A stretch of DNA of 64,000 bases from assembly GCA_021513695.1 (NCBI GenBank), contig CP084166.1:864001-928000 (forward strand). Direction: 5' to 3'. Each line of letters starts with the position of its first letter. The stretch's first letter is position 1. Both the position numbers and the translations under genes were made by a program. Of this stretch, positions 19,537-59,400 are shown one piece after another. The notes below the pieces were generated by a model. That model saw only the letters and a program-made list of their open reading frames with translations. It was not told the DNA's origin and did no database searches. Source of the DNA: Candidatus Heimdallarchaeum aukensis. Its GTDB lineage: Archaea; Asgardarchaeota; Heimdallarchaeia; Heimdallarchaeales; Heimdallarchaeaceae.

Positions 19537-21289
19537 TTAAGCAATTTTTTTTCTTGTTAGTATGACTAAAGTTACTAGTCCAATAATAGTAATAAAAAAT
19601 GGGAGAGAGATTGTTTTTGTAGAAGGGTGCTCACTTGGATCCAATGGATTATAACCTTTTTGAACTTCCTCACCATCCATCCAACCATCTGAATCAGTAT
19701 CTGAATTTAAAGGGTCAGTAAGGTAAATATTAACTTCTTCTCCGTCACTTAGTCCATCTGAATCAGTGTCTGAATTTAAAGGGTCAGTAAGGTAAATATT
19801 AACTTCTTCTCTGTCACTTAGTCCATCTGAATCAGTGTCATTGTTATTTGTTAGAGTTCCTATATATTGTTCATAAGCATTTGATAAACCATCATAGTCT
19901 GAATCAACATCATACAAGTTCTTAGTCCTTATGAACTTAGAAGATCCACTCATTCCTTCCCAATAAACATGTAGAGAACTTGAAGGAAAAGAAAAACAGT
20001 AGATATATTCAGTAGTATCACCTATAATAAGCTCCAAATGACCATCAGAATCAATATCACCAATAGAGGGAGAAGAATAAGCAAAAGGACCAAGAGTATA
20101 ACTCCACAATAAAGATCCATTATTACTCAAACAATATAAATTACTATCATGAGACCCAAAAATAATCTCAAAATATCCGTCTGCGTTAATATCTGCAACA
20201 GAAGGAGAAGAACGAACATTATCTCCTGTTTTGTAAGTCCATTTTATAGAACCATCATTGTTGAAACAGTACACATAATCAGAATCACTCCCCACAATAA
20301 TCTCAAAATAACCATCAGAATCTATATCTACGACAGCAGGAGAATCCCACACTCTATCTTCAGTATTGTATCGCCATTTTAAAGTACCATTATAATTTAA
20401 ACAATAGATGTAACCGTCATGGCTACCAATAATGATTTCTGATCTCCCGTCTGAATTAATATCTGCGATAGCTGGAGAAGAATAAATATCATTAGCAGTA
20501 CCGTATCGCCATTTTAAAGTACCATCATTGTTGAAACAATAAATGTAATTATCATAACTTCCGACAACAATTTCCAAGTCCCCATCAGCATCAATATCAC
20601 CGACTGAAGGTGAAGAAAGAACATTAAGACCAGTACCGTATCGCCATTTTAAAGTACCATCATTGTTTAAACAGTAGATATAATAGTCATCGCTACCAAT
20701 AATGATTTCTAAATTTCCGTCTCCGTCAATATCAAAAACAACTGGAGCAGTACGAACTTTTTCTCCTGCTTTATAAGTCCATTTTACAGTACCATCATTA
20801 TTCAAGCAGTATATGTAATTGTCATCACTTCCTACAACGATCTCCAAATTTCCGTCTTTATCAATATCTACAACTACAGGAGAAGAACGAGTGGATCCAC
20901 CTGTTTTGTAAGTCCATTTTACAGAACCATCATTGTTGAAACAATAGATGTAACTATCCAAACTCCCTTCAATGATCTCTACATTTCCATCGGCATCAAT
21001 ATCAACTATAGCAGGAGAAGAATGGATATCTCCCCCAGTTCTATAACTCCACAATAACTCAGCTTCAATACTCTTAAATGTTGAACCTTTGGGTGTTTCA
21101 AGATTAGTACTTGCATAAGAAAGAGAGTCAGTAGATAAAGAAGTTTCACCATTATAGTTTAAGGAAGTATTAAGTCTTCGATAATCAGTTTCATAATTTG
21201 ATGTTAACAAAGCAGGTGTTAACAAAATAATTAATAAAGCAACCGTGATAGTTAAACTTCTTATTCTTGAAATTTGCATTATTTTTTCT
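19537..21289 (-). CDS. Membrane-anchored secreted beta-propeller protein (9 FG-GAP/PQQ-like blades) with C-terminal TSP3-like Ca-binding repeats
   Basis: Nine repeats of the form DIDxDGxxEIxxGSxDxYIYC[FL]NNDGxxKWxYxTG. These are followed by D-rich DTDSDGLSDxEEVNIYLTDPLNS repeats and a C-terminal TM helix. The probable true start is the signal peptide MQISRIRSLTITVALLIILL (~21289), not the ORF-track start at 21450. Confidence 0.7.
19691..19840. repeat. Near-perfect 69-bp tandem duplication (2.2 copies) inside the beta-propeller gene, encoding the 23-aa DTDSDGLSDxEEVNIYLTDPLNS unit
   Basis: Units at ~19691-19759 and ~19760-19828 differ at 2 positions. A third partial unit follows. Confidence 0.8.
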
Positions 21290-28007: not shown

Positions 28008-28340
28008 TTTCTATTATAAGAAGAAAAACTCTATTCTATAAAATTTTCGTAATCATAAATCATTGTGAAATCATGAATTAATATTCTAAGGAAATACACT
28101 TCACATTTTTTTATTTTGTATTTATAAACCTAGTAAACATATTATCTATTAAGAGAAAAAAATGGAATACTAAAACATTATTAGAAACTATAATCTATTA
28201 ATGTTAGATTTGCTCGCTAACTAAAAAAATCATTGCTTATTCCTAAACAATAAAAAGAACAACTAGAAAAATAAGTATCAAAGCATTATGTTTTAAAATT
28301 TTATGTATAATACTATTTCACGTATCATGATAAGCATAAA

Positions 28341-28500
28341 CTTGGTCTAACCTACTGTAACTCCGATCTTTTTTCAACCTCTCTTACTACAATTTTAGCC
28401 TTGCTCACCAGTCTATTAACTTCCTAACTTTGGAAAATAATTTATGAACCAACCCTAAGTTTTTGACATTCAAAAGTGTAACCCCCTATAGAGAGTGAAT
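28341..28500. repeat. Intergenic repeated element, copy A (intact); a homologous copy at 43246-43317 plus 44081-44200 is split by the IS6-like insertion
   Basis: Shared core cttggtctaacctactgtaactc[c/a]gatct...tttt...cctctcttactacaatttt. The downstream cttcctaac...aataatttat...caaaagt[gt]taaccc blocks align by eye between the two loci. Confidence 0.5.
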
Positions 28501-36790: not shown

Positions 36791-37529
36791 AGGCTTCTAA
36801 AAACTCTAAGATAATAAATAGTGCTGAGTATAGTGTCGTATGTTCAATTTATAAAGCATAGACTCAGAAAAATAGATGAACACCCACAATTACTTAAACC
36901 TTTATTTCAACCTAGATTCCTTGATACCCCTACTAACAAACAGGTCGAGAAGGAAGATTAAAACAGTGAGAACGGGCTGGATAGTAGCCTTAGCGCTGAT
37001 ATGTGCGTCTTTTTCTACGAGATAAGAACAGTATACAGAGCGGTTAAACCTTGTGAATAAGAAAATACAAAGTATAACACAACATACATTCCGCAAAAAA
37101 CATCCATCTTCAACGTTTGCACAGAGATAAAAAACTCCAAATAGTCCACACAATCACGTTAATAGTAAGAATGCTTTGCTCTTCTCCCGAAACAGTAGAA
37201 GAGGACAGGACAGGATTCAAGGTAAAAGGGGGTTGATTTAGAGTATTGCTAATGGAGTCACGCTTTACATAAAAACAAAGTCATTTTGGAAAGTCCACAA
37301 GATTATAGATTCCCCGATATTCATCCTCTCGGTTGCCCTCTCTCATTTCTACCGTTATAACCCCACACGAACAAGAGCATTTTTCAGAACCTAGAGAAAA
37401 AGACTTCTATGTAGAATTAGAAGATTTCATGCAGATAAAGCCCATCATAACAACAAACTGGGAGGGGGTTTCTCATCCAAGAGAGAATCAAATTTATTAT
37501 CGAACTAAAACGTAAACGTCGATCATGAC

Positions 37530-38330
37530 CTAATTATATAAATCACCTTTTTTTCCTTTGGGGATTGCTAATAAATAACCTTGTATCGTATCTCTAATGT
37601 CTGTGAAATCTCTAAATGGATTAGGATTACCTATAATTATTTCCTTATTTTCGCTTTTAAGAATCTTTGCAATCTGATTAAAAATTACTAAAGTTACAAA
37701 CATAATTTCTCTGTTTGGTCCAGTATTATTATATCCTCTTGTAACAACAATAGGCAATCCATACATACTATGATATTTAAGACTAAATTGTTCAGTAGCT
37801 ACCTTACTAGCTTCATATGGAGACTGTGGTCTAAGCGAATTGTTTTCATTAATAGGTATTTCGCCTAGAGATGGTAATCCATATTCTACACTACTCTCTG
37901 CAATCTGAATATCAATATCTAAATCTGAATTTCTTATTATTTCTAAAAGATTTACAGTACTTTCAATATTTGTACGTACAGCTTCAATAGGCCCCCAAAA
38001 TGAGAAAAGAACAAGACTGTGCTGGTAAGTGAAAGATATAACTTGGTTGGACTTCTTTGATAGTTATTTCTAATGATGAATAATCAATAAGATTAGCTTC
38101 CTTAAGTATAGTTTTATTAAGAAATTTATCAATTTTTGGATTTATTGGATTAGATTGTCTTCTTACAATACTATAAATTTCAACTTCTTGTTCCACAGAT
38201 AGTATTTTTTCTACTAAAGAGCTACCTACAAATCCTAATGTGCCAGTAATCAGAACCTTTTCTTGATGAAAACATGATTTGTCATACAGATCTCTTTTTT
38301 CTTTAGAAAATTTATTTTTATATTCATTAA
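37530..38330 (-). pseudogene. Degraded paralog of the Gmd-like GDP-mannose 4,6-dehydratase at 48601-49704
   Basis: Fragments in different frames align to the intact gene. KVLITGTLGFVGSSLVEK matches RVLITGITGFVGSHLAEK. VRRQSNPINPKI...EANLIDYSSLE...PSYIFHLPAQS matches VVRRQSVPNFPNI...EANLIDYSSLE...PDYIFHLAAQS. YGLPIVVTRGYNNTGPNRE...IIIGNPNPFRDFTDIRDTIQGY matches YGLPIVITRGFNHTGPRRG...IIIGNPKPIRDFTFIEDMIQGY. Frameshifts and stops interrupt them. Confidence 0.75.
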
Positions 38331-38688
38331 TATTGTCTGGATATATTAAGAATTTGCTTGTTTCTCATATATTTCTCAGTAAATTTTATCTTCAAAGAGC
38401 ATAAATAAACTAACGCTTTCTTAGTTTTTAAATTTAATAGCAAGTATTTTAATTTAAACTCATTATTTTTTCAATTTTTTTTTAAAAAAATTTGAAGAAT
38501 AAAATGTAAGAATGAACAAACTTAAAATTAATAATTAAATTCTGCTTCATTAAAATGCATTATTTACTATTTAAATTGTAACTAAATACATAAATACATA
38601 TATACACATATTATTGAAAATAATAAGATAACTTTAACAAACAAATTTATTACAAAAAATAAGAAAAACTTCACATTGGGGGAAATTT

Positions 38689-39479: not shown

Positions 39480-40309
39480 CTCCACGTTGATGTTTTAAAT
39501 TTATAAATGATATTAAAAAACTCTTATGGTGCACTTCCAAGGTGTTACAAATACAGACATAGATTGTACTTGAAATAATAGAGAATAAGACGCTTATGAT
39601 GATGGAAGAGAAGACGGTCACGCAACGAGATGAATACAAGTTTGATGAAAACAAAAATGTTTTCTACGGCAGATTTACAGGACACACAGAAGTGTTTTTA
39701 TTTACACAACCAGTGATAAGACTGTTAAAGACGTATTGAACGGTCTTGGAGATAACCTGTCTCATGGGTGGATTCGTGAAAGAAACGATAAAAATGAGTT
39801 AGCAAAAAAATACAAACATATTGATCCAAGATTTCTTTTTGTAAAAAAAAGATATAATTTAAGACCAACTGAAATACAAGGAGCATTTGGAATTCAACAA
39901 CTCAAGAAACTTGAAATATTCTTACGAACTAGAGAAGAAAATGCAAAATTTTGGATAGATAATTTGAACAAATATAGAAGCCTTATTCACATTCCAAAGA
40001 CTGAAACAAATATAAGACATGCATGGTTTGGATTTCCAATAGTTATTTATGAAAAAGCTGGATTTAAACATGATGATTTCATTAAAATATCTTGAAAACA
40101 ATAATATTGAAACTCGTCCAATTATGGCAGGAGATATAATTGAACACCCCGCTATGCACTATTATAACTGGAAACAAGTAAGAACACTAGAAAACTCTTC
40201 AAAGATAATAAAAAATGTTTTCTTCGTTGGAAATCATAGTAGCATTAAACAAAAAGAAAGAGAATACATTATGGATGTAATGAAATCATTTTTGGAAAAA
40301 AACACCTAA
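39480..40309 (+). pseudogene. Degraded C-terminal half of a DegT-family enzyme, paralog of 49730-50998
   Basis: TSDKTVKDVLNGLGDNLSHGWIRERNDKNELAKKY...RYNLRPTEIQGAFGIQQLKKLEIF...NNIETRPIMAGDIIEHPAMHYYNWKQ aligns to the intact copy (HGWIRERKDRSILAKKY...GYNLRPTELQGAFGIHQIKKLDDF...NNIETRPIMSGNITEHPALKYFKWRK). It is split over two frames. The upstream part is a GC-elevated, stop-rich remnant. Confidence 0.7.
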
Positions 40310-40344
40310 CTTTTTTTTAAATATTCATTAAAATCTTTTCTTTT

Positions 40345-41349
40345 AAAGCATGTCCAAAAATTAATTTTTATTAATGTGGGGGTTTATGTCGGAAGTATGA
40401 GTTTCTTTCAGATCATAGACCCCCACAAAGCAAGAGAATTCATAATCATTAATGAACCTTTCCTTAAGAAACTGGTGAAAGAGGAACCGAGAGAAAGTAA
40501 GAGAGGGAGAAAAAGAATAGCAGAAAGGTGGGTGATACTGGCTTTAGCGATCATTGCGAGAATAGAAGGAATTGCTTGGAGGAAGTTAGAGGAAAAGTTG
40601 TCTTTATGCGATTTTTTGATAGAAGAGGGGTGGATGAAGAAGATTCCTTCCAAATCTACTTTTCATGCAGTGTGGAGAGCGACAGAAAGTAAGTTGCTGG
40701 AGCGGTGGATAATAGATTTAGGTAGGGAAATAGTAAGGAAAAAAGGGTTGAAAGCTATGTCGGTGGATAGTTCAGGTTTTAAAATTCGTCAAGCTTCTGT
40801 TTGGCGTTTTCTCAAGTGGGCAAGAGGAGGACTAAAGAAAACCTCCAAACTTTTCTGGAAGATACACCTTATAGTTGGTTTACCCTCTCGAGCTATAGTC
40901 TCTCTTGCTCATTCTGCTAGTAACACTCACGATAGTAAAGTCTTCGGTTTACTATGGCAGAAACTTCCTTCTGCACTCTTGAGACCTTTCTTGAGATTCT
41001 ATGGAGACTGCGCTTACTGGACAGAAAATATCGTGGGACTTCTTAGCCAACATTCCTTTTTTCCTGTTATTCCTCCAAAAAGTAATGCTCGTTATCCCTC
41101 TCCTCCTCCTCTTGGACCAATAGTTCAAGCTCATCGTCTCTACCCTGGTCTCTATCGTCATAATCACCACCCCGAGTATCGTAGTAGTATTGAACATGTC
41201 TTTGGTCTCCTCAAACTCTCTCTTCCCCCGATTCTTGATCGCTTACCCTCCACCATCCTCTCTACCTTGTACAGTTCTCTTCTCTGTTACAACTACCTTT
41301 TACTCCTTCGGACTGTATAGTTGGTGAAAAAGAATTTTTGGACATGCTT
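40345..41349 (+). mobile_element. IS4/IS5-superfamily insertion sequence, copy 1 (about 1005 bp, 18-bp perfect terminal inverted repeats AAAGCATGTCCAAAAATT)
   Basis: Identical to the copy at 47464-48469 over its whole length except for one A insertion in copy 2. The inverted repeats were read at both ends. Flanks suggest a 3-bp duplication (TTT here, AAT at copy 2), but AT-rich flanks make that weak. Confidence 0.85.
40376..41320 (+). CDS. DDE transposase of the IS4/IS5 superfamily
   Basis: C-terminal YRSSIEHVFGLLK fits the R-x3-E-x6-K (YREK) signature of IS4/IS5 transposases. The ORF fills the element. Confidence 0.8.
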   Translation: MGVYVGSMSFFQIIDPHKAREFIIINEPFLKKLVKEEPRESKRGRKRIAERWVILALAIIARIEGIAWRKLEEKLSLCDFLIEEGWMKKIPSKSTFHAVWRATESKLLERWIIDLGREIVRKKGLKAMSVDSSGFKIRQASVWRFLKWARGGLKKTSKLFWKIHLIVGLPSRAIVSLAHSASNTHDSKVFGLLWQKLPSALLRPFLRFYGDCAYWTENIVGLLSQHSFFPVIPPKSNARYPSPPPLGPIVQAHRLYPGLYRHNHHPEYRSSIEHVFGLLKLSLPPILDRLPSTILSTLYSSLLCYNYLLLLRTV

Positions 41350-41397
41350 TTTTAATAGAACATTAAATATTTATATCTATATATTATGTAACTATCA

Positions 41398-42543
41398 ATG
41401 AAAATAGCTATAATTAATCAATTTACCACACCAGAAGCTGGAGGGCACGAAATAAATTTAGCCAAACTATTACATAAAAAAGGACATGAACCTGTAATAA
41501 TAACTTCTGAATATAAGAATCCTAACCTAACCAATTATAAACTTATTAAGGCAGATGTGAAGAAGGATAAAGAACTCTGTTCTTTTAAAATTATAAGACT
41601 AAAAACTATATTTGCCTATTCAGAATTCCCAATTGTGACAGGAATGGATAAAATAATAGCTGAACTTAAACCAGACATTATTAATATTCATGAATTTTTT
41701 CAATACACTAGCTATAAAGGATACAAGTTAGCGAAAAAAAACAAAATACCTATTGTATTAACTCAACACTGTTATTACTTTCCACCCAGTTTTTTGAATA
41801 GATTAGGTATGAAAATTACAACTAAACTTTGGGGAAAAAAAATAATCAAGAATAGTGATGGACTTATAGCTATAGCTGAAAGCTCTAGTAAATTTCTAAA
41901 GGAAGTATCAAAAAATCCAAGATTGAAAGTAAACATAATACCAACGCCATTAGAATTGGATCAATTTCTTGAAATTATACCAGATTTTACTAAAAAATCA
42001 GAAAGTGATATTTTTAGAATATTATATGTTGGAAGAGTAGATGAGAGAAAAGGGATAAAATATTTGTTAGATGCTATGTCAATAGTAACAAAAAGATTCT
42101 ATAAACAAAAAATTGTTTTAGATATTGTTGGAAGAGGAGCAGATTTAAAGAAGTTTAAAAGATATGCAAGAGACAGAAATATTTGTGCAAAATTTCATGG
42201 ATTTGTTGAACATCAAAACATTTCAAAATTTTATAAAAAAGCTAATGTTTTTGTTTTACCCACAATTACAAAAGAACCATTCGGCAACGTAGCAGTTGAA
42301 GCTTTAGCGTCTGGGATCCCAGTTATTGCAAGCAAATTAGGAGGACTAGTAAATATTGTTCAAGAAGGTGCAGGATTTTTAGTTCAACCAAAAAATGCAG
42401 AAGAAATAGCTAATGCAATTACAAAGTTTTTAGATAATCCACTCTTATTAAAAAATTACAGTAAGAATGCAAAAGATCTTGGGTTCAGATTTGCAAATGA
42501 GCCTATAAATTCAATTATAGAGTTATTTCAGAATCTTATTTAA
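41398..42543 (+). CDS. GT4 glycosyltransferase
   Basis: EPFGNVAVEALASGIPVIASKLGG EX7E motif. N-terminal MKIAIINQFTTPEAGGHEINLAKLLHKKGHEPVII matches the GT4 N-domain. Confidence 0.85.
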   Translation: MKIAIINQFTTPEAGGHEINLAKLLHKKGHEPVIITSEYKNPNLTNYKLIKADVKKDKELCSFKIIRLKTIFAYSEFPIVTGMDKIIAELKPDIINIHEFFQYTSYKGYKLAKKNKIPIVLTQHCYYFPPSFLNRLGMKITTKLWGKKIIKNSDGLIAIAESSSKFLKEVSKNPRLKVNIIPTPLELDQFLEIIPDFTKKSESDIFRILYVGRVDERKGIKYLLDAMSIVTKRFYKQKIVLDIVGRGADLKKFKRYARDRNICAKFHGFVEHQNISKFYKKANVFVLPTITKEPFGNVAVEALASGIPVIASKLGGLVNIVQEGAGFLVQPKNAEEIANAITKFLDNPLLLKNYSKNAKDLGFRFANEPINSIIELFQNLI

Positions 42544-42585
42544 ACATGTTTCTGAACTAAATATTGTTTAAGTAATCACAAAGAG

Positions 42586-43030
42586 ATGGATATAAAAATG
42601 GACATTAATAAATTCAAAAATCAAAACATCTTGATAATTAGTGAAAATGGTTTTATTGGTTCTCACCTTTTTCTAAAGCTTAGACATTTATCTAAAAATA
42701 TTATTAGAACAGTTTATTCACATAATTCAGAGAAAAATCAATTGTACAAATTTTACTATATCCATGTATTATTTGTTCAGCTGATGATTTAGAAGATGAA
42801 TATGCAATTGATGGGATTTAATAGATGTGTTTCATCTATAGGTAAATATTTAGTTTTTCCATAAACCAGACCAGATGATGAAAATACAAATTTTGAATCC
42901 TCTTGATATTTTCTAATGTTTTCCATTATATTTAAAGTTCCAAAAGTATTGACTTGATAACAAAGCTCTGGCTTTTTTATTGATTCATAAACATCAATTA
43001 AACTTGCTAGGTAATATATGATATTGAAAT
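42586..43030. pseudogene. Disrupted NAD-dependent sugar epimerase/dehydratase: N-terminal fragment on + strand (42586-42792) and the following mid-gene segment inverted on - strand (~43030 to 42790)
   Basis: The + strand encodes NILIISENGFIGSHLFLKL (Rossmann GxxGxxG start). The - strand encodes YLASLIDVYESIKKPELCYQVNTFGTLNIMENIRKYQEDSKFVFSSSGLVYGKTKYLPIDETH, which is the segment that normally follows in the same orientation. The C-terminal part is absent. Confidence 0.55.
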
Positions 43031-43245
43031 TTTAAAATTATTACAATAATATCCTACAAACGATTTGGTTATACTATTAAGATATATAAGTGAAGTAGAT
43101 AAAATAAATAAAAACTACCTCACTTTTAAATCTTTATAAGTTTAGTTCTTTATAAATTTTGGTTAATCTTACTACATTTTTCTCATTATAATACTTTTTT
43201 TTATTATTTTTTTATTTATCATGAGACATTCATGAAATGTAGAGA

Positions 43246-43317
43246 CTAGGTCTAACCTACTGTAACTCAGATCTCTTTTTTTCTTCCTCTCTTATTACAA
43301 TTTTCCCCCTTCACTAG
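43246..43317. repeat. Left half of repeated intergenic element copy B; the right half resumes at 44081
   Basis: ctaggtctaacctactgtaactcagatctc...cctctcttattacaatttt matches 28341-28395. Confidence 0.45.
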
Positions 43318-44080
43318 GGTAGTGTCTAGTTTTTATACCACCTCCTAGGTAAAAAGGAACTAAGGGGAGGATGTCCCAAGCTCTGATGAGGACGAACGAA
43401 ATTATAATGGAGCATAAAGAGAGTAAGAAAACCAGAAAGATGAGTAGAGCCATAGACGGCACGGATAGGACAAGTGCAGTGGAGAATAGAATGAAACCAA
43501 CGATAACTCTTAAGAGTAGCATTAAAACGTTCAATATAGGAGCGTAAACCACCTTTGATAACGGAGATTTTGATACCTAGACGAAGTAAGACAGGATACC
43601 ATACCCCTGCATCTGTAACGACAATACGGGGCTTAAAACCCCAACATTTGAGCCAATAACGGAAAGTTAGTAAACATTCAAGATTACTCCGTCCTTTAGT
43701 AATACTAAAACCCAGTAAAGTCTTGTTGTAAGGATCTAACGCGAACCACAGATATATTGAGCCTTGAGAGGTCCTAATCTCTGTTTCATCTACTACTATA
43801 ATCTCTGGTATTCCCCCTCTCTCTGCTACAACTCTATGTAAACTTTCCCTAAAGAGCCTGAACTTCTTTACCCAATACCATAATGTTTGATGCGTTAAAC
43901 CATTCTTCCATGCTACTGTCCTCAACCCATTCTTTGAACCAATATATTCATAAATCGCTTTTATTATTATTTTTTTGGGGACTCTGCATCTCTTAAAAAG
44001 AGCAGATAGTTTTTGTGTTTTCATATCTTACTATTAGAGTCCCCACAAATATTTTTGTCGGAAGAAAACTAGACACTACC
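43318..44080 (-). mobile_element. IS6-family-like insertion sequence (about 763 bp, 16-bp perfect terminal inverted repeats GGTAGTGTCTAGTTTT, 9-bp direct target duplication CTTCACTAG)
   Basis: The inverted repeats start with GG as in the IS6 family. The CTTCACTAG duplication sits at 43309-43317 and 44081-44089. The single ORF spans almost the whole element. Confidence 0.75.
43326..44024 (-). CDS. DDE transposase, IS6-family-like
   Basis: 232 aa. VVDETEI, VVTDAGVWY and IERFNATLKSYRW blocks resemble the D, D and E/K regions of IS6/IS26-type transposases. There is an N-terminal HTH-like region. Confidence 0.7.
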   Translation of the reverse strand: MKTQKLSALFKRCRVPKKIIIKAIYEYIGSKNGLRTVAWKNGLTHQTLWYWVKKFRLFRESLHRVVAERGGIPEIIVVDETEIRTSQGSIYLWFALDPYNKTLLGFSITKGRSNLECLLTFRYWLKCWGFKPRIVVTDAGVWYPVLLRLGIKISVIKGGLRSYIERFNATLKSYRWFHSILHCTCPIRAVYGSTHLSGFLTLFMLHYNFVRPHQSLGHPPLSSFLPRRWYKN

Positions 44081-44437
44081 CTTCACTAGCCTCCTAACCT
44101 TCTTATATTAGAGAAATAATTTATTAAAAGAAACATTTTTCTAGTACCCAAAAGTATAACCCATGTCTATCGAGTGAACAACTAGGGAAATAGTAATCAA
44201 AAATTCTTCATATATTGAATAATCTGATATTGGATATTTGAAATTAAGTCCAATTTCCGCTTACAAATTCCTCTTTTGAAGTTTTGTATATACTTCTTTA
44301 TACATGCATATTATAAAATGAAAACATAAGCTTAATTTATATTCTTCTTTTTGACATATTATTTTAATCATTATAGAGAAAAATAGAGTTTCAATTAGAA
44401 AAAATAAATTTTTATTATAGAAAAAAAATATTAACTT

Positions 44438-45394
44438 GTGAGTTTTATATTGCGTGAGATGATAACAATGAATTCAGATTTATCACTAAAAGACAAGAAA
44501 ATTTTATTAACAGGTGGTAGTGGTTTTTTTGGAAGTTTTATTCTTGATGAATTAAATAAAGAGGAAGTTTCTGAAATTATTGTACCAAGGTCATCAAGGC
44601 ATGATTTACGTAATAGAGATGATGTACAAGATGTAATGGACGGAGTTGACATCGTAATACATGCTGCAGGAATTGTATCTGGTATTGGGGGAATTCAAGA
44701 AATACCTGCAAAAATTTTTTATGATAACGCAATAATGGGCTTGCATATAATGGAAGAAGCAAAAAATTTTGGAATTAAGAAATTAGTAAATATAGGTACT
44801 GCTTGTTCATATCCCAAATTTGCACCTATACCCTTAAAAGAGAAAGATTTATGGGCTGGATATCCTGAAGAAACCAAAGCTTCTTATGGTATCGCTAAAC
44901 GTTTACTAGTAGAAGGTGCAAGAGTTTATCATCATCAATATAATTTAAATGTTATCCCACTAATAATATTTAATCTATATGGACCTCGTGACAATTTTGA
45001 TTTAGCTACCTCTCATGTAATACCTGCTTTAATTCGAAAATGCTTAGAATCAAACAAGTTAGTGGTTTGGGGAGATGGAACTCCAACAAGAAGTTTTTTG
45101 TATGTCAAAGACGCAGCAAAAGCTGTGATATTGGCAACAAAAAAATATAATAAACATTACCCTGTAAATATAGGTACATCTGAAGAAACTAGTATTAAAA
45201 ATCTTGTAGAATTAATAGCTGAATTAACTGGTTTTAATGGTGAAATAATCTATGATAAAACAAAACCTAATGGACAACCTAGGCGATGTGCAGATGTTTC
45301 GTTAGCAAAAAAAGAATTTAATTTTGAAGCTAAATATTCATTAAAACAAGGATTAAAGGAAACAATTGATTGGTATAAAAAAAATTTTAACTGA
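44438..45394 (+). CDS. GDP-4-keto-6-deoxy-D-mannose 3,5-epimerase/4-reductase family (GDP-L-fucose synthase Fcl/WcaG or GDP-colitose synthase ColC-like)
   Basis: KKILLTGGSGFFGS Rossmann start. NIGTACSYPKFAPIPLKEKDLWAGYPEETKASYGIAKRLLVEG...LYGPRDNFDLATSHVIPALIRK aligns closely with the Fcl blocks (SSCIYPK...EPTNEPYAIAK...LYGPHDNF...SHVIPALLRR) from memory. Confidence 0.75.
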   Translation: MSFILREMITMNSDLSLKDKKILLTGGSGFFGSFILDELNKEEVSEIIVPRSSRHDLRNRDDVQDVMDGVDIVIHAAGIVSGIGGIQEIPAKIFYDNAIMGLHIMEEAKNFGIKKLVNIGTACSYPKFAPIPLKEKDLWAGYPEETKASYGIAKRLLVEGARVYHHQYNLNVIPLIIFNLYGPRDNFDLATSHVIPALIRKCLESNKLVVWGDGTPTRSFLYVKDAAKAVILATKKYNKHYPVNIGTSEETSIKNLVELIAELTGFNGEIIYDKTKPNGQPRRCADVSLAKKEFNFEAKYSLKQGLKETIDWYKKNFN

Positions 45395-45559
45395 AAATTT
45401 TGACTTTTTTGTTTAATTTTAATTAATTACTGTTATATCACGATATTCATAAATAAAAGTTATTGATAACAATGTAGAAATAATTAATTATTAGAAATCT
45501 CAATTTTAATTCTTCAGTGATCCTTCTGGAGGAAGTTTTATGTTTTCAGAAAAAAAATA

Positions 45560-45830
45560 TAAATCCATCCCTACCATAAATGATGCGTAAAATCCACGAT
45601 CATAAATCTTTCGCCATACATATGAATTATTTTTGTTTGGTGGATAATTAATAATACAGGATTTATGATTTTAGGGAGAATTAGTGGTAGCAGCATATTT
45701 ATCAATCTTTAAAATTGGCTAACATATACATTAGCATTCTGCATTGTTAGAATATAGCAAAGATAAGAACCAAGAAAAACTGAACCACCAGTTACAAAAA
45801 TACTTTGATTCTCAATTTTTATTTCTCTCT
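45560..45830 (-). pseudogene. Fragment of another NAD-dependent sugar epimerase/dehydratase (N-terminal Rossmann segment only)
   Basis: The minus strand encodes EKREIKIENQSIFVTGGSVFLGSYLCYILTMQNANVYVSQF followed by stops and frame changes. No intact start or continuation. Confidence 0.45.
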
Positions 45831-46202
45831 TTTTTAAATTATTGTATTTTAATCTTCATTGATGAATATAAAAATTAATTTGGTTATATATAAAAATCTA
45901 TATCAATTTTAATATGGCTTTTAGAAAATAAAATTTATTTTAGTTTTAAAACAATGAAGAGGATTATTTAAAAGAAAATTGTTAAAAGAAAAAATTAATA
46001 TTCATAAGTTCACATAAAATAGCCACAAACTATTAAGATAATGGAATAAATAGGAAACAGATATTCATATGACTATAAAAGTATATGATTTTTGTCTTTT
46101 AGAATAGAAAATACAAATTTTTTTTGTAGATGTAATTCTAAATATCCCTTTACTTTTAATAAAAACCTAATCTTTATAATAAGATTAGTAATTATTCTTC
46201 AT

Positions 46203-47333
46203 ATGGATAAAGTTATAATAATTGGTCCCTCTTCAAAATTCTTAAGTGGTATCACATATTATACAATTAATATAGCAAATTTGTTAAGAAAAGATAAAAA
46301 AATTTTTATTTTTGAAATAGATCAATTATTACCAAAATTTTTATTTCCTGGGTCAGGAAGAGTGGGTAAAATACAAACAATCTCTACTTATAAAGAAGAA
46401 GTCTCAGTTAGCCATATTAAAATGAAATATTATTCAATACCTTCAATAATTAAAGCAGCAAAGTCTATAAACATGTTAAAACCAAAGGTAGTAATCTTTC
46501 AATGGTGGTCTTGTACAGTAGCACACATTTATTATTTTTTAATAAAACTTATTTCAAAAGAGATTAAAATCATTTTTGAGTTTCATGAAATTTTAGATAC
46601 AAGCGAAGCTTCATTTTTTCTTCTAAAAATTTATACGAGTTTGATGATGAAATTGTTGTTAAAGGAAGTTACAATATTTATAACTCATTCAGTTTCCGAT
46701 AAGAAAAAAGTAATAAAAACTTATAAAATAGATGAAAGCAAAATTCAAGTTATACCTCATCTTACAACAACTACCTATTCTTTAATAAGTAAAAATATTG
46801 CTAGAAAAAAATTTAATTTACCAATGAACTCAATCGTCTTGGTATTTTTTGGATTAATTAGAAAATATAAAGGAATCAACATTTTAGTTAAAGCTTTTGA
46901 ACAATTAAAAATAAACAGCTTAAAAAAGCCATTACTTATTATTGCTGGAGAGATATGGGATCCATTAGACAAGAAAACTAACAAGATAATAAATGAAAAT
47001 AGAAATATTATTCTTATTAACAAATACTTATCAGATGAGGAGGTAGAATATTTAATCTCTGCTGCAGATTGTTTTGTATTACCATATACTAGAGCATCTC
47101 AGAGTGGAGTATTAAGTATAATACATAATACAGGCAAACCTGTAATATTATCTGACATAAAAGAATTCGTGGAAGCTTCAAAACATTATAGTAATTCTAT
47201 TTTCTTTAAGAGAAATGATATTATAGATTTAAAATCAAAAATAGAAAAATTCACTAAAAATCATAATGATTTTAATATTAAGCCAGTTAACAACAATGAA
47301 AGAGTTAAAGAATTATATCTTTCTGTAATGTAA
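46203..47333 (+). CDS. GT-B (GT4-like) glycosyltransferase
   Basis: Likely start MDKVIIIGPSSKFLSGITYY; the ORF track begins 37 codons earlier. The C-terminal nucleotide-sugar-binding-like region ISAADCFVLPYTRASQSGVLSIIHNTGKPVILSDI is a degenerate EX7E. Confidence 0.55.
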   Translation: MDKVIIIGPSSKFLSGITYYTINIANLLRKDKKIFIFEIDQLLPKFLFPGSGRVGKIQTISTYKEEVSVSHIKMKYYSIPSIIKAAKSINMLKPKVVIFQWWSCTVAHIYYFLIKLISKEIKIIFEFHEILDTSEASFFLLKIYTSLMMKLLLKEVTIFITHSVSDKKKVIKTYKIDESKIQVIPHLTTTTYSLISKNIARKKFNLPMNSIVLVFFGLIRKYKGINILVKAFEQLKINSLKKPLLIIAGEIWDPLDKKTNKIINENRNIILINKYLSDEEVEYLISAADCFVLPYTRASQSGVLSIIHNTGKPVILSDIKEFVEASKHYSNSIFFKRNDIIDLKSKIEKFTKNHNDFNIKPVNNNERVKELYLSVM

Positions 47334-47463
47334 TTATATATTTCTAAAAGAGGAGATAAAATCATTGTTACGCTTACAGACAAGCTATTATGAATCGAAA
47401 TTCTCAAATGAAAGTAATATTATATGTTTTTGTCTATCTTCAATTAAATATTAAATAATTAAT

Positions 47464-48469
47464 AAAGCATGTCCAAAAATTAATTTTTATTAATGTGGGG
47501 GTTTATGTCGGAAGTATGAGTTTCTTTCAGATCATAGACCCCCACAAAGCAAGAGAATTCATAATCATTAATGAACCTTTCCTTAAGAAACTGGTGAAAG
47601 AGGAACCGAGAGAAAGTAAGAGAGGGAGAAAAAGAATAGCAGAAAGGTGGGTGATACTGGCTTTAGCGATCATTGCGAGAATAGAAGGAATTGCTTGGAG
47701 GAAGTTAGAGGAAAAGTTGTCTTTATGCGATTTTTTGATAGAAGAGGGGTGGATGAAGAAGATTCCTTCCAAATCTACTTTTCATGCAGTGTGGAGAGCG
47801 ACAGAAAGTAAGTTGCTGGAGCGGTGGATAATAGATTTAGGTAGGGAAAATAGTAAGGAAAAAAGGGTTGAAAGCTATGTCGGTGGATAGTTCAGGTTTT
47901 AAAATTCGTCAAGCTTCTGTTTGGCGTTTTCTCAAGTGGGCAAGAGGAGGACTAAAGAAAACCTCCAAACTTTTCTGGAAGATACACCTTATAGTTGGTT
48001 TACCCTCTCGAGCTATAGTCTCTCTTGCTCATTCTGCTAGTAACACTCACGATAGTAAAGTCTTCGGTTTACTATGGCAGAAACTTCCTTCTGCACTCTT
48101 GAGACCTTTCTTGAGATTCTATGGAGACTGCGCTTACTGGACAGAAAATATCGTGGGACTTCTTAGCCAACATTCCTTTTTTCCTGTTATTCCTCCAAAA
48201 AGTAATGCTCGTTATCCCTCTCCTCCTCCTCTTGGACCAATAGTTCAAGCTCATCGTCTCTACCCTGGTCTCTATCGTCATAATCACCACCCCGAGTATC
48301 GTAGTAGTATTGAACATGTCTTTGGTCTCCTCAAACTCTCTCTTCCCCCGATTCTTGATCGCTTACCCTCCACCATCCTCTCTACCTTGTACAGTTCTCT
48401 TCTCTGTTACAACTACCTTTTACTCCTTCGGACTGTATAGTTGGTGAAAAAGAATTTTTGGACATGCTT
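47464..48469 (+). mobile_element. IS4/IS5-superfamily insertion sequence, copy 2 (identical to copy 1 apart from a single extra A)
   Basis: Same inverted repeats and internal sequence as 40345-41349. gggaaaatag here versus gggaaatag in copy 1 (~47836). Confidence 0.85.
47495..48440 (+). pseudogene. IS4/IS5 transposase gene, frameshifted (split into 47495-47890 and 47868-48440)
   Basis: A 1-nt insertion in an A-run breaks the reading frame relative to copy 1. This could be a genuine inactivating mutation or a homopolymer sequencing error. Confidence 0.75.
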
Positions 48470-48600
48470 TAATAATTAAATACTAAATAATAATTTAATA
48501 ATTAAATATTAAATAATAAAAAAATTTATTTTGGAATACATATTCTATTTTAATTTCTAAAAGAAAAAAATATAAAAATATTTGAATCTTTACATTAAGT

Positions 48601-49704
48601 ATGTTATCAGAAAAAGAAATTTTCCGTGAAATAAATGCTAAACATAAAAAAATTCTTATAGATCCTGAAAATTTAGATTCTTATTTGTCAAATTTTGATA
48701 AAGAAAAAAAAGATTTATTTGATCCAAAAAAACTAGAAGGTTCTAGGGTTTTAATTACCGGTATTACCGGATTTGTAGGAAGTCATTTAGCAGAGAAACT
48801 TGTAGGATTAGACTCTGATATTGATGTTTATGGTGTTGTGCGAAGACAATCTGTACCTAACTTCCCAAATATTAAACATATTGTTAATGACATAAATCTA
48901 ATAGAAGCAAATTTGATAGATTATTCTTCTTTAGAACATACTATTAATAATGTAGAACCAGACTATATTTTCCATCTAGCAGCTCAATCTTTTGTACCAA
49001 CTTCTTTTATTGCACCAATTGAGTCTGTAACAATAAACATTCAAGGAACAGTAAATTTACTTGAAATTCTTCGTAAAAGTGAAATTAATTTCAGTGGAAT
49101 TCAAGTTGCCTGCAGTAGTGAGCAATATGGACTTGTCTATCCTGATGAAGTTCCAATAAATGAGAACAATCCATTTAGACCACAATCACCTTATGCTGTT
49201 AGTAAAATAGCAACTGAAAAATATAGTTTAACTTATCATAGAGCTTATGGTTTACCAATTGTAATTACAAGAGGTTTTAATCATACAGGTCCAAGAAGAG
49301 GAATAAAGTTTGTTACTTCAGTAATCGCAAGTCAAATCGCAAATATTATTAATGGCAAAGGAAATAAGATAATAATCGGAAACCCCAAACCAATAAGAGA
49401 TTTTACATTTATTGAAGATATGATACAAGGATATATTTTATCAATAATAAAAGGAAAAAGAGGTGAGGTTTACAATCTTGGTCATGGATTTGGAATTAGT
49501 ATAGAGAATTTGATTAAACTTACTGCATCTATTTACGATGTTAGCTATGAAATTGAAATTGATAAATCAAGATATCGACCAGCAGAGGTAAACATTCTTG
49601 TATGTGATTATTCAAAAGCTAAAAAAGAACTAGGTTATTATCCACAATATTCGTTAGTTGAGACTATCAGAAAAATTGTTGAATTTTACTTAGAAAAAAC
49701 GTAA
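48601..49704 (+). CDS. gmd: GDP-mannose 4,6-dehydratase-like (Gmd family) NDP-sugar dehydratase
   Basis: RVLITGITGFVGSHLAEKL, VVRRQS, DYIFHLAAQSFV, PYAVSKIATEKY (YxxxK) and especially GFNHTGPRRGIKFVT resemble Gmd blocks (IVRRSS, YNLGAQSHV, FNHESPRRG) recalled from memory. It has a 45-aa N-terminal extension. Confidence 0.7.
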   Translation: MLSEKEIFREINAKHKKILIDPENLDSYLSNFDKEKKDLFDPKKLEGSRVLITGITGFVGSHLAEKLVGLDSDIDVYGVVRRQSVPNFPNIKHIVNDINLIEANLIDYSSLEHTINNVEPDYIFHLAAQSFVPTSFIAPIESVTINIQGTVNLLEILRKSEINFSGIQVACSSEQYGLVYPDEVPINENNPFRPQSPYAVSKIATEKYSLTYHRAYGLPIVITRGFNHTGPRRGIKFVTSVIASQIANIINGKGNKIIIGNPKPIRDFTFIEDMIQGYILSIIKGKRGEVYNLGHGFGISIENLIKLTASIYDVSYEIEIDKSRYRPAEVNILVCDYSKAKKELGYYPQYSLVETIRKIVEFYLEKT

Positions 49705-49729
49705 TCTTAAATTATAGGGTGATTTTATA

Positions 49730-50998
49730 ATGAAGTTAGAAACAGCATTGAATGAAATTAAGAATATTGTAGATATGTATTTCTCTGAAAATGATATTTA
49801 TAAAGATGAAACGAAGATAAGGCTTATTGCTCCTTCATATGGAACTAAAGAAGTGATAGAAGTAATAGAATCACTTCTTTCCACTAATGTAACAATGGGT
49901 AAAAAAGTTAGTGAATTTGAAAATATGTTTTCAACATACTTAAATGTGAAATATGGTACTATGGTAAATTCTGGTTCAAGTGCAAATTTAATAGCTCTTC
50001 AAATTTTATCAAATCCTGCTATTAGAAATAATATTAAACCTAAAGACGAAATTATTACTCCAGCTTTAACTTGGTCTACTACTGTTTTTCCAATGTTTGA
50101 TATTCATGCAGTTCCTGTATTTGTTGATGTGGATCCTAAAACTTTGACTATTGATGTTAACCAACTAAAAAGCGCTTTATCTAAGAAAACTAAGGCAATA
50201 ATGCCAGTTCATCTTTTAGGTCATCCATGTGATATGGACTACATAACAGAATTTGCTGAAGATAATTCATTGTACATAATTGAAGATTGTTGTGAAGCTC
50301 ATGGAGCAATGTGGAAAGGTAAGAAAGTTGGTAGTTTTGGTGATATCGGTACTTTTAGTTTCTTTTTTTCTCATCATATATCTACGATAGAGGGTGGGAT
50401 TGTTGTTACTAATAACGAAGAATATAATCTTTTATCAAAATCTTTGAGGGCCCATGGTTGGATTCGAGAGAGAAAAGATAGGTCGATTTTAGCTAAAAAA
50501 TATCCTTTTATCAGTGAAAAATATCTTTTTATAAATAAAGGATATAATTTAAGACCTACAGAACTTCAAGGCGCATTTGGAATACATCAAATTAAGAAAT
50601 TAGATGATTTCATTAAAATTAGAGAAGAAAATGCAAAATATTGGTTATCTGAACTTGATGAAATAAAGCATCTTATACAGTTACCAACCATTAAGAAAGA
50701 TGTTAAGCATTCATGGTTTGGTTTTCCCTTAATAGTTAAAGATGAAGCTCCATTTAAAAAAGATGACTTAATTCAATATCTTGAATTAAATAACATTGAA
50801 ACTCGTCCAATTATGTCAGGTAACATTACAGAACATCCAGCTTTAAAATATTTCAAATGGCGTAAGATCGGTAATTTGGAAGTATCCTCGAAAGTTATGA
50901 AGAATGGCTTTTTCTTTGGTAATCATCTAGGTATTAAAAACTACGAAAGAGAATTTATTGCGGAGAAAATTAGAGAGTTCATAGATTATAAAACTTAG
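49730..50998 (+). CDS. DegT/DnrJ/EryC1-family PLP enzyme with His replacing the Schiff-base Lys: ColD-like NDP-4-keto-6-deoxyhexose 3-dehydratase rather than a classical aminotransferase
   Basis: The block GSFGDIGTFSFFFSHHISTIEGGIVVTN aligns to the family consensus ...SFhgnKiittgEGG... with H at the K position, read by eye. The remaining blocks (HGWIRER, NIETRPIM) are standard DegT. Confidence 0.65.
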   Translation: MKLETALNEIKNIVDMYFSENDIYKDETKIRLIAPSYGTKEVIEVIESLLSTNVTMGKKVSEFENMFSTYLNVKYGTMVNSGSSANLIALQILSNPAIRNNIKPKDEIITPALTWSTTVFPMFDIHAVPVFVDVDPKTLTIDVNQLKSALSKKTKAIMPVHLLGHPCDMDYITEFAEDNSLYIIEDCCEAHGAMWKGKKVGSFGDIGTFSFFFSHHISTIEGGIVVTNNEEYNLLSKSLRAHGWIRERKDRSILAKKYPFISEKYLFINKGYNLRPTELQGAFGIHQIKKLDDFIKIREENAKYWLSELDEIKHLIQLPTIKKDVKHSWFGFPLIVKDEAPFKKDDLIQYLELNNIETRPIMSGNITEHPALKYFKWRKIGNLEVSSKVMKNGFFFGNHLGIKNYEREFIAEKIREFIDYKT

Positions 50999-51081
50999 AT
51001 ATCCTTTAAAATAAACTGTTAAATAATATAGAAATTTCCTAAAAAATACTTCTAACATTTTTTATTTTGTTTTTCTGCTAA

Positions 51082-57221: not shown

Positions 57222-57665
57222 AACAAATTTTTATTAATTATTTTATTTTCAGCAAAAGTTCTCTTACTTCAGGTGGGGATAGTTCATACTGCAATTTTCA
57301 CTTTTCACTTGGTGGATACAAAAAGCGAAATAGTAAATTAGTAAAGTAAAAGCAAATAAAACTAGACTTCTTCACTAAAGAATATGATATACTAAATCTC
57401 TATACTCTATTCTCTTCTCTTCTCTTTTCTTTTCTTTTCTTTTCTTGGTTGTATGCATGACTTATTTTTTTACGTAAGTTTGTAAAAATTGAATTGAGGG
57501 AGGAGTGAATGTAAAAAAGAAAAAAGAAAAAAGAAAGGAGGAAGGGAGAAGAGAGGAAAATGAGGGGTTTTTATAAGGAAAAAAGGTATAAGTAAGTAAG
57601 AAGAGAAGAAGAAAAGTAAAAAAAAGAAAGAAAAAAAAAGAAAAAAAAGGAAGGAGTAAAGAAGG

Positions 57666-59126
57666 ATGGAGGGCGTCGTTAAAACCTTGAAAGTGAGAAT
57701 AAAGAATGAGGTGTTGACGACTAGAAAAAAGCTAAGGTTAAGGAGAATAACGGGGAGAGACACAAGGATTATAGAAAAGTATGTGAGAATAATACACCAT
57801 AACAGAAGAAAGATATGTATACGAACCAAAAAAGGGAAAATAAGAGTACATAGAGGAAAATTAGATGAGTTGACGCTTACTACTTCAAAAGTTAAAGAAG
57901 AAGAGATGAGAACGACTGTTCCTCACGACCTTAAGAAAATGTTTCCTTACTGTTCTCACAATGAGTTTCAAGAGTGTAGAGATATAGCTGTGCAACTGTA
58001 CGAGCAAGGATATCGACCCAGTTCTAAACGTCCTCTCATAAAGAGAGTAAGAAGGCAACTAATTAATGGAAAAAGATTCATCCTTGTTCATCTACCAAAA
58101 GAAAAGAATAACACTCTTACTCGTTGGTGGGTGGGAATAAGAGACTCGTTAGACACGTGGAAAAGAAATACCCCCTACCATCAGAAGTTGTGGTTACCTT
58201 TAGAGATAAGCACTTTTCATCAGAAAGAGTTGAAAAAAGGACAAGTGAAAAGCCTAGAATTAAGATATAAGCATTCTACACGTGAGTGGTGGGTGTATTT
58301 TCAACTAAAAGTTCTCCCTCCTTCTTCTTTTCTAAGCGATAATTCCTCTTCTTCTTCTCTTCCTCCAGCTGTGCTGGGAATAGATCTGGGGATAAACATT
58401 CCAGGTGCAGGAGTGCTTCTAGCCCCTAAAAAGAAGTTAACTATTAAAGAGATAAAATTCTGGTATACCAAACAGTGGAATAAATTTAATCATAGATATA
58501 AACTTAAACTTTCCCGTCTTCAGAGGAAAGCGGCTTTAAATGACCAGTCGGGTAAAAAACACCAAATTTATCGTTTTCTTGGATATCTTCGAAGAAGATA
58601 TAGAAACGTTAAACGAGCCTATATTCACCAATTTGTAAGCGATATTGTGCGGACAATAGAGAGTTATGCGCAAGTGTATGATCTTTTTGTCGTCGTAGGT
58701 TACCCCAAAAATGTTAGAAAAGGAAAAGGAAAAGAAAAAGGGAAAAGTAAAAGTACTCGTTATTTTCGCAGAAAACTTCATCAGTGGAACTATGCTCATG
58801 TTCTTGGTCTTCTCCGTCGAGCATTGATATTAAGAGGTTTTGCTCCTCACCGCATTCTTATAATAGACGAAAGAGGAACATCTTCTCATTGTTCACGTTG
58901 TGGAAAAGAAGTTTCTCGTCCCGTCAGAGGGTTAGTCTCTTGTCCCTCTTGTAACTATACCTTCCACTCTGATTTAACAGGAGCTAGAAATATTGCTCTT
59001 AAGTTCCTTAGTCATCTTTTTCGTCCCCGTGTTACAACTATTACTGATTACTTTACTGGTCAAAAATTCAGTCTTACCCATTACACTGTTTGCCGAGGGC
59101 TCAGCCATTGGTTGCAGTCCCAGTAG
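57666..59126 (+). CDS. tnpB: TnpB (OrfB_IS605) RuvC-like RNA-guided endonuclease
   Basis: RuvC-I GIDLGINIPGAG, RuvC-II IIDERGTS, the zinc finger CSRCGKEV...CPSCNY and RuvC-III HSDLTGARNIAL near the C-terminus. The N-terminal half matches the OrfB_IS605 wedge/REC-like region. Confidence 0.85.
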   Translation: MEGVVKTLKVRIKNEVLTTRKKLRLRRITGRDTRIIEKYVRIIHHNRRKICIRTKKGKIRVHRGKLDELTLTTSKVKEEEMRTTVPHDLKKMFPYCSHNEFQECRDIAVQLYEQGYRPSSKRPLIKRVRRQLINGKRFILVHLPKEKNNTLTRWWVGIRDSLDTWKRNTPYHQKLWLPLEISTFHQKELKKGQVKSLELRYKHSTREWWVYFQLKVLPPSSFLSDNSSSSSLPPAVLGIDLGINIPGAGVLLAPKKKLTIKEIKFWYTKQWNKFNHRYKLKLSRLQRKAALNDQSGKKHQIYRFLGYLRRRYRNVKRAYIHQFVSDIVRTIESYAQVYDLFVVVGYPKNVRKGKGKEKGKSKSTRYFRRKLHQWNYAHVLGLLRRALILRGFAPHRILIIDERGTSSHCSRCGKEVSRPVRGLVSCPSCNYTFHSDLTGARNIALKFLSHLFRPRVTTITDYFTGQKFSLTHYTVCRGLSHWLQSQ

Positions 59127-59400
59127 ATAAAAAAGTTCCTTTCTTTTATATCAAGGGATAGGTTCTTTTTTGTCTCTCGTGGAGTGAAGAAAGAAAAAGT
59201 TCTTTTCTTCTTTATGATTCCCATGATTCGTGTATGAGGTCTGTCTCAACCCCTCCCATTCATTGTATTATTGGTTGAGTTCGCAAGAGATCAAACTTTC
59301 TCCTTGCTTGTTTTTTCTCTTGAAAGACTGAGTGCGAAAAACTTACGTAAAAAAGTAAATCATAATCTCTTAATTTGTTAATAACCACACTTATCATTCA
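59127..59400 (+). ncRNA. Candidate omega-RNA (reRNA) region at the 3-prime end of the tnpB element
   Basis: Known TnpB systems transcribe a guide RNA that overlaps the tnpB 3-prime end and the right end of the element. This stretch has elevated GC and stem-forming segments, e.g. gttgagttcgcaagag...ctccttgcttg. Extent and strand are inferred, not demonstrated. Confidence 0.3.

Follow-up and report, generated by a model that had tools for sequence, protein, structure and literature searches.

Two copies of an IS5-like insertion sequence in Candidatus Heimdallarchaeum aukensis, very probably inserted independently into resident DNA

When two copies of one insertion sequence lie in the same orientation on either side of a group of genes, it must be asked whether they carried those genes to the site as the arms of a composite transposon, or whether each copy arrived by itself in DNA that was already in place. 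This question is raised by a stretch of 64,000 nucleotides from the chromosome of Candidatus Heimdallarchaeum aukensis (contig CP084166.1, positions 864,001 to 928,000; hereafter the window, with positions counted from its first nucleotide), in which two nearly identical elements of about 1 kb bracket glycosyltransferase and epimerase genes, and in which an earlier note proposed a possible composite transposon. Here we report that the pair very probably represents two independent and recent insertions of a single active, multi-copy IS5-like element, and that the segment between them is resident.

The genomes of Ca. H. aukensis (a chromosome of 3,081,793 bp) and Ca. H. endolithica make up the pair of circular Asgard genomes published by Wu et al. 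2022, with an average nucleotide identity (ANI) of 88% and an average amino-acid identity (AAI) of 90% between them (PMC8813620). Non-tandem repeats make up 3% of both genomes and are underlain by multi-copy transposase families; 11 families of transposases or integrases (a-k) are described, seven of which are multiplied and reach up to 27 copies in a genome (PMC8813620). Both genomes have been singled out for unusually heavy loads of repeats and transposons (PMC8813620, PMC13343696), and in a 2026 survey of 394 Asgard genomes Ca. H. endolithica has the highest count, 81, of 'eukaryotic-like transposons' (PMC13343696). Repeated transposases in the Ca. H. aukensis genome are already on record (PMC8813620); the searched text and supplements of that paper, the latter containing no transposase table, give no element ends, target duplications or insertion sequence family assignment, and make no mention of the present pair.

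Ends and empty sites of the two copies

The earlier description of two near-identical copies that differ by one extra A is borne out by global alignment. The copies lie in direct orientation, with start-to-start spacings of 7119 and 7120 bp between their 100% identical blocks, and their sole difference is a single-base indel with identical sequence on either side, where copy 1 reads GGGAAATAG (AAA at 40728-40730) and copy 2 reads GGGAAAATAG (AAAA at 47847-47850). The 18-mer AAAGCATGTCCAAAAATT occurs four times in the window, once at each element end, against a chance expectation of 0.42, and none of 100 shuffles reached four. This 18-mer had been taken as the terminal inverted repeat. While the repeats are indeed perfect at all four ends, among the 22 full-length copies in Ca. 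H. endolithica the base preceding AAGC can be A, T, C or G and the base following GCTT can be T or A, so that the outermost base of the 18-mer, and the matching last T, belong to the flank rather than to the element. The element therefore runs from AAGCATGTCC to GGACATGCTT with perfect inverted repeats of 17 bp, and of the spans first proposed (40345-41349 and 47464-48469) the right ends were correct and the left ends one base early. Duplications of 3 bp (TTT and AAT), which accompanied the 18-bp repeat, were dropped on the same evidence of a variable outermost base; each copy is flanked by a 5-bp duplication of its own (Table 1).

Protein searches with the two genes adjacent to the copies each led to a 98-99% identical protein on a short contig of JGI metagenome 3300033149, and both contigs carry an insertion site in its empty state. 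In contig L085 the alignment to window positions 39988-40346 passes without interruption into that to 41350-43089, at 96-98% identity; the sequence at the copy-1 site, AAAATCTTTTCTTTTAATAGAACATT (core TCTTTTCTTTTAATAGAAC), contains a single TTTTA and lacks the element. In contig L076 a match to 47335-47465, again with flanks 96-98% identical, is followed at once by one to 48474-51030, and the copy-2 site, AAATAATTAATAATTAA, likewise has a single TAATA and lacks the element. A metagenome scan with the neighbouring GT4 protein returned distant relatives only. Since both sites are empty in a strain that has diverged by 2-4%, both insertions are later than the split from that strain, an age that agrees with the absence of any substitution between the copies and upholds the earlier view that their near-identity reflects recent transposition. 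The two copies thus appear, from these comparisons, to have inserted independently and recently.

Several other histories could leave such a pair. In the one that the arrangement most readily calls to mind, an 8.1-kb composite of copy 1, four genes together with an IS6-like element, and copy 2 brought the glycosyltransferase and epimerase genes to this locus. As in Tn5, Tn9 and Tn10, two copies of one insertion sequence surround non-transposon genes; the copies are in direct orientation, their outer ends are intact, the bracketed genes are of an accessory type, and the locus differs between strains. We nevertheless consider such a delivery scarcely tenable, because the 5-mers at the outer left and outer right flanks differ (TTTTA and TAATA), leaving the unit as a whole with no common target duplication, while each copy has a matching pair of its own, and because the interior DNA (from 41350 onward, and 47335-47465) is contiguous with the exterior (up to 40346, and from 48474 onward) in the related strain, where both copies are absent. 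Ca. H. endolithica likewise has orthologous DegT, GT4 and epimerase genes at the syntenic locus (in the order GT2, GT4-like, gmd, DegT, GT4, epimerase), where the orthologue of the window GT4 gene comes directly after DegT and no element intervenes. The earlier note correctly described the genes that the copies enclose (GT4, IS6, Fcl-like and GT4-like); the check that it proposed, whether this region is absent from relatives, gives a negative answer in both of these comparisons. The segment of about 6 kb would then be resident chromosomal DNA bracketed by two insertions, not composite cargo. With intact outer ends, the 8.1-kb unit could formally still be mobilised in the future or, in principle, be deleted through recombination between the direct copies, although neither has been seen.

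Two further alternatives concern the near-identity itself. Multi-copy elements 7 kb apart can convert each other, and old insertions held identical by gene conversion could also agree over 1004 bp but for one indel; yet both sites are empty in the strain 2-4% diverged, which makes both insertions young regardless, both 5-bp duplications are intact, and the dispersed young copies of Ca. H. endolithica include identical pairs as well (pairwise differences from 0, median 16), all of which makes conversion very unlikely. The earlier note also raised the concern that a single copy had been placed twice, or a repeat collapsed or expanded, as misassembly classically arises at repeats. The chance of this is close to nil given that each copy has unique flanks and its own duplication, that all four flank junctions are matched to the base by independent metagenome contigs with empty sites, and that a second closed genome independently contains multiple copies of the element. 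Two separate, recent insertions remain the explanation that we hold with high confidence.

Table 1. Window coordinates of the two element copies, their component features and the genes lying between them
Feature	Coordinates	Strand	Remarks
IS5-like insertion sequence, copy 1, intact	40346-41349	+	1004 bp; boundaries from 22 full-length Ca. H. endolithica copies, in agreement with the L085 empty site
Left target-site duplication, copy 1	40341-40345	.	TTTTA; identical 5-mer at 41350-41354; single copy in L085
Left terminal inverted repeat, copy 1	40346-40362	+	17 bp, AAGCATGTCCAAAAATT; perfect complement of 41333-41349
A/T-rich box, copy 1	40364-40373	+	TTTTTATTAA; 24-33 nt upstream of the ATG; read from sequence
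Transposase gene, copy 1	40397-41320	+	307 aa from ATG (314 aa from GTG at 40376); product equals UJG41575.1 exactly
Catalytic codons, copy 1	40766 (D124), 41006 (D204), 41192 (E266)		R262 and K273 lie in R-x3-E-x6-K
Right terminal inverted repeat, copy 1	41333-41349	-	17 bp
Right target-site duplication, copy 1	41350-41354	.	TTTTA
GT4 gene between copies	41398-42543
IS6-like element open reading frame between copies	43326-44024
Fcl-like epimerase gene between copies	44438-45394
GT4-like gene between copies	46092-47333
Left target-site duplication, copy 2	47460-47464	.	TAATA; identical 5-mer at 48470-48474; single copy in L076
IS5-like insertion sequence, copy 2	47465-48469	+	1005 bp; copy 1 plus one extra A; empty site in contig L076
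Truncated N-terminal reading frame, copy 2	47516-47890	+	124 aa (110 native plus 14 out-of-frame); UJG41580.1, annotated as hypothetical protein
AAAA run with extra A, copy 2	47847-47850	+	Frame shift after codon 110; AAA in copy 1 and in 16 of 16 young Ca. H. endolithica copies
Orphaned C-terminal catalytic frame, copy 2	47868-48440	+
Right target-site duplication, copy 2	48470-48474	.	TAATA

The transposase and its family

The transposase matches the Pfam domain DDE_Tnp_1 (PF01609) with an E value of 2.4e-10 and 41 bits, against a cut-off of 23; the domain is matched by all 36 members of its family. Its top NCBIfam match is IS5_2 (NF033579), at 67 bits and below the cut-off of 140, and the same profile is the top match for all 36 members (best E value 1.9e-27). 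Scores for IS1182, IS5_3, IS5_4 (about 30 bits for the last two) and IS4_1 (26 bits, cut-off 115) are weaker, and 12 of the 36 members also match DUF4096, the IS4/IS5 N-terminal domain. These profiles bear out an IS4/IS5-type element of the DDE_Tnp_1 superfamily. In the 36-member alignment D124, D204, R262 and E266 are invariant, K273 is about 70% conserved, and Y261, directly before R262, is not conserved, giving the family motif D...D...R-x3-E-x6-K. The YREK signature reported earlier accordingly stands as regards R262-x3-E266-x6-K273 but not in its canonical IS4 form, since the region reads P-E-Y-R-S-S-I-E and the IS4-type Y-x2-R is absent. The two aspartates are 80 aa apart and the second aspartate and the glutamate 62 aa apart, spacings that we take to be IS5-like; IS4 transposases have more than 100 aa between the second aspartate and the glutamate, with an insertion domain. 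A confident AlphaFold2 model (mean pLDDT 86.6, pTM 0.87) has an N-terminal helical region followed by an alpha/beta core, and a Foldseek search of the PDB with this model found only generic RNase-H-fold enzymes (piggyBat, Tn5 and retroviral integrases) with TM scores of at most 0.43.

The element resembles the IS5 family in its length of about 1 kb (within 0.8-1.5 kb), its single open reading frame (ORF) of about 300 aa, its terminal inverted repeats, its DDE_Tnp_1 domain, its short spacings between catalytic residues and its E-x6-K tail. It departs from that family in a profile score far below the curated cut-off, in transposases that form a small separate clade, and in target duplications of 5-9 bp with a mode of 6, whereas the classical IS5 subgroups have characteristic duplications of 2-4, 8 or 9 bp. 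With the IS4 family (Tn5/IS50 type) it shares the same Pfam domain, and the structural search matched Tn5 transposase at a TM score of about 0.38, but the element lacks Y-x2-R-x3-E-x6-K and its 62-aa spacing is too short for the insertion domain. We regard the element, from its sequence, as IS5-related, below family thresholds and unlike any classical IS5 subgroup in the length of its duplications.

The 48 full-family homologues found (with one further, spurious hit) lie almost entirely in metagenome-assembled genomes (MAGs) of Heimdallarchaeota or Heimdallarchaeaceae or on unnamed metagenome contigs, and one short fragment labelled Helarchaeota falls within the 90% cluster. In a profile search of 1.84 billion representatives there were 28 clusters at E values of 1e-30 or below, followed by a drop to the generic DDE_Tnp_1 range. 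The family is thus a small, discrete clade, which has so far been seen almost exclusively in Heimdall-type Asgard archaea. In other Heimdall MAGs, distant relatives have in common the termini AAGC(A/T/C)TGTCC, with the shared terminal motif AAGCNTGTCC, and one of them (L088) has a 6-bp duplication, AAAATA. The nearest named element, identified by tblastn in a plasmid collection, is an 'IS5-like element ISAae1 family transposase' of Aquifex aeolicus with 28% identity. Viruses as carriers of the element between hosts gained no support from IMG/VR, where the profile found no relative and the 17-mer gave six single, chance-level matches. A contig of 2068 bp binned as Saccharibacteria (CAYRIM010000111.1; L019) holds a deleted, non-autonomous relative with both ends at 73-76% DNA identity and the middle missing; this contig may be mis-binned, a suspicion that arises because the family is otherwise restricted to Asgard archaea.

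Copies in Ca. H. endolithica (CP084167.1) were located by an exact 18-mer search, in one genome per species, followed by alignment to copy 1. At least 28 copies and one 184-bp fragment were found, a lower bound because the probe carried one flanking base; 22 copies are full-length, and six are partial in being split by, or extending beyond, the retrieved 8-kb blocks. For the same genomes, the families of Wu et al. reach at most 27 copies (PMC8813620), as against the 28 or more of this element in Ca. H. endolithica. In Ca. H. aukensis, at least six coding sequences appear in the transposase cluster listing. A young Ca. H. endolithica subfamily is 94.9-96.5% identical to the window copy, and an older one 88.6-89.7%. 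Exact direct duplications border 17 of the 18 young copies (16 from Ca. H. endolithica and the two of the window), with lengths of 5 bp for the window pair, 6 bp in 11 copies, 8 bp in three and 9 bp in one. Among six longer, disrupted copies (88.6-93.5% identity), a 6-bp duplication was kept by one (93.5%) and a 7-bp duplication by one older copy, and the other four have lost theirs, for an overall range of 5-9 bp in which 6 bp is commonest.

Copy 1 differs from the consensus of the young Ca. H. endolithica copies at 49 positions, all within the ORF, of which 39, over roughly 220 synonymous sites, are synonymous and 10 non-synonymous (seven amino-acid changes), and the 80 nt of non-coding ends show zero differences between the two species. 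The 307-aa frame is intact in all 16 young Ca. H. endolithica copies, and all six longer copies, including every one of the older subfamily, are disrupted. This pattern points to an element maintained by selection for transposition, with purifying selection on the transposase. The marks of an active, autonomous insertion sequence are found together here: insertion polymorphism in the form of empty sites, many copies with target duplications, and purifying selection. Upstream of the transposase gene, the A/T-rich box of Table 1 is a plausible candidate for its archaeal TATA element.

The composition of the element is also distinct, with a GC (guanine plus cytosine) content of 41%, compared with 28.4% in the window as a whole and 27% in the segment that separates the copies. 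For the transposase gene, GC is 42% and GC at third codon positions (GC3) is 0.38, compared with 28-31% and 0.13-0.19 in four neighbouring host genes. A foreign origin or strong coding constraint had been offered as explanations; the high GC is real, but the excess is present at synonymous sites and so goes beyond what amino-acid constraint alone would produce. Relatives in other Heimdall MAGs have a GC content of 39-42% in hosts of 31-40%. Within Ca. H. endolithica, GC is 0.408-0.418 in young copies and 0.378-0.398 in older, decayed ones, and the lower values are in keeping with a drift of inactivated copies toward the base composition of the AT-rich host. Between the two species the young subfamilies share 95-96.5% DNA identity, against a genome ANI of 88% (PMC8813620), which could reflect transfer after speciation or simply stronger constraint. 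Taken together, the subfamily identity relative to ANI, the difference in GC3 and the lower GC of decayed copies suggest horizontal movement. Our tentative proposal, which we would put at somewhat less than an even chance, is of a distinct, Heimdall-restricted group of IS5-related, sub-threshold elements, with AAGCNTGTCC termini and a flexible stagger of 5-9 bp, that perhaps moved horizontally between two co-occurring Heimdallarchaeum species after their split.

As a separate observation, GC skew flips within the transposase gene (40397-41320), from +0.38 in the 5' half to -0.34 in the 3' half. No such flip is seen in family members from other Heimdall MAGs, whose values are +0.03 to +0.26 and then +0.02 to +0.07. 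The flip reflects the replacement of consensus segments rich in K, E, D and N by segments rich in S, P and L. An antisense ORF of 81 aa (40952-41197) was considered as a cause of the skew and rejected, as synonymous differences between the two species are as dense inside it (12 in 246 nt) as elsewhere.

The frameshift of copy 2 and the proposed course of events

In the deposited sequence one copy is frameshifted, as the earlier note held, and its N-terminal fragment is annotated separately as UJG41580.1. Copy 2 is the sole young copy with a broken frame. The fragment keeps residues 1-110, which form the helical, predicted DNA-binding part of the structural model, and is without all three catalytic residues; one possibility is that this product, a DNA-binding domain alone, damps transposition. 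Programmed frameshifting of the IS427/IS1031 or IS3 type was rejected because a single ORF, rather than two overlapping ORFs with a slippery site, is the family norm, seen in copy 1, in 16 young Ca. H. endolithica copies and in 35 homologues, and only copy 2 is split, by +1 in a run of three A.

It is conceivable that the extra A is a residual homopolymer error of long reads and that both copies are intact, a possibility of some weight, although we do not consider it probable. The genome was built from Nanopore reads and corrected by Pilon with short Illumina reads (PMC8813620); inside a repeat longer than the read, short reads map ambiguously, so that polishing could leave a homopolymer indel uncorrected. 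Just such an indel, of one base, is all that distinguishes the copies, and the reading frame is unbroken in each of the 16 young copies of the sister genome. To set against this, the homopolymer is short (three versus four A), the coverage is high at 346x (PMC8813620), and other copies in Ca. H. aukensis and Ca. H. endolithica are truncated too (P0053, P0056 and P0059), copy decay being common in these genomes.

Under our account of two independent insertions, the copies would have entered separately the AT-rich intergenic spacers of a strain-variable glycan-biosynthesis cluster, each creating its own 5-bp target duplication. By the standard DDE mechanism, the N-terminal helical domain would bind the AAGCATGTCC ends, the RNase-H-fold domain (D124, D204 and E266) would cut the element ends, and the resulting 3'-OH ends would be joined to target positions with a stagger of 5-9 bp, mostly 6 bp. 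Copy 1 encodes an intact enzyme. Copy 2, deprived of the catalytic domain by the +1 A, would be non-autonomous, and with its ends intact could still move in trans.

A number of points weigh against this account or parts of it. The empty-site contigs are short-read metagenome assemblies and come from a related strain rather than from the same strain, and transposition in this uncultured host is here deduced from sequence comparison. The frameshift may be a long-read assembly artefact within a multi-copy repeat, where short-read polishing is weak. The assignment to IS5 is built on profile scores below threshold (67 versus 140 bits), and duplications of variable length are at odds with all the classical IS5 subgroups.

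Other features of the locus and significance

The IS6-like element between the two copies spans 43318-44080 (763 bp, GC 38.5%); its inverted repeats, GGTAGTGTCTAGT, are 13 bp long, and it has a duplication of 9 bp, CTTCACTAG. Its transposase, of 232 aa on the minus strand, scores 49 bits against the NCBIfam IS6 cut-off of 125 and has weak rve and rve_3 matches. Contig L085 has a precise empty site for this element too, with one CTTCACTAG, and the element is a third recent insertion. Short related fragments at 28325-28462 and 43227-43304 (79-84% identity) correspond to the end, on the 3' side, of a transposase gene of the rve_3 type that is seen in the Ca. H. endolithica sequence L086 and at the start of L076, and are remnants of another insertion sequence family. 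The stretch at 57606-59363 has two counterparts in Ca. H. endolithica, in L021 and L086, with 85-86% identity, and the one in L086 has a Cas12f1-like/TnpB zinc-ribbon (PF07282); this is probably a TnpB element of the IS200/IS605 type.

Genes around the copies have also been rearranged or have decayed. Fragmentary gmd-like (37524-38452, minus strand) and DegT-like (39736-40309, plus strand) frames to the left of copy 1 are the true orthologues of the gmd and DegT genes that Ca. H. endolithica has in intact form, at 80-83% DNA identity, whereas the intact gmd/DegT pair to the right of copy 2 (48601-50998, plus strand) is only about 72% identical and has as its best named relative a Helarchaeota protein (74%). 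It looks as though a decayed resident pair has been replaced by a divergent, acquired one. The GT4-like gene (45887-47341) is placed or oriented differently in three genomes, lying between the Fcl-like gene and copy 2 in the window, inverted at 43085-43089 in L085 and beside GT2 in Ca. H. endolithica, and its junctions (near 43085-43089, 45623 and 47335-47341) fall in short microhomologies of the ATATATAA type. Contig L076 shows an inversion-type difference: past the intact DegT (window 51030) it has 58 unmatched bases (2927-2986 of the contig) and then the reverse complement of window 39859-37784. The window breakpoints are 39859/39860, inside the DegT pseudogene, and 51030/51031, and two direct copies cannot explain the difference; the contig may be a short-read chimera at this point. 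Farther away, seven tandem units of 135 nt lie at 20104-21048, each matching the reference copy at 66-76% identity and the series closely preceded by a 69-nt pair at 19663-19800; they are probably one of the intragenic tandem repeats reported for these genomes (PMC8813620).

With the true ends and target duplications of both copies defined, the element can be annotated correctly and there is no further need for the idea of a composite transposon. The locus itself may be viewed as a strain-variable glycan-biosynthesis island in the process of being reshaped by several mobile elements. The element itself is an ordinary DDE insertion sequence that would not surprise a specialist; its precise empty sites provide a clean example of current insertion sequence activity in an Asgard lineage that is often placed closest to eukaryotes.

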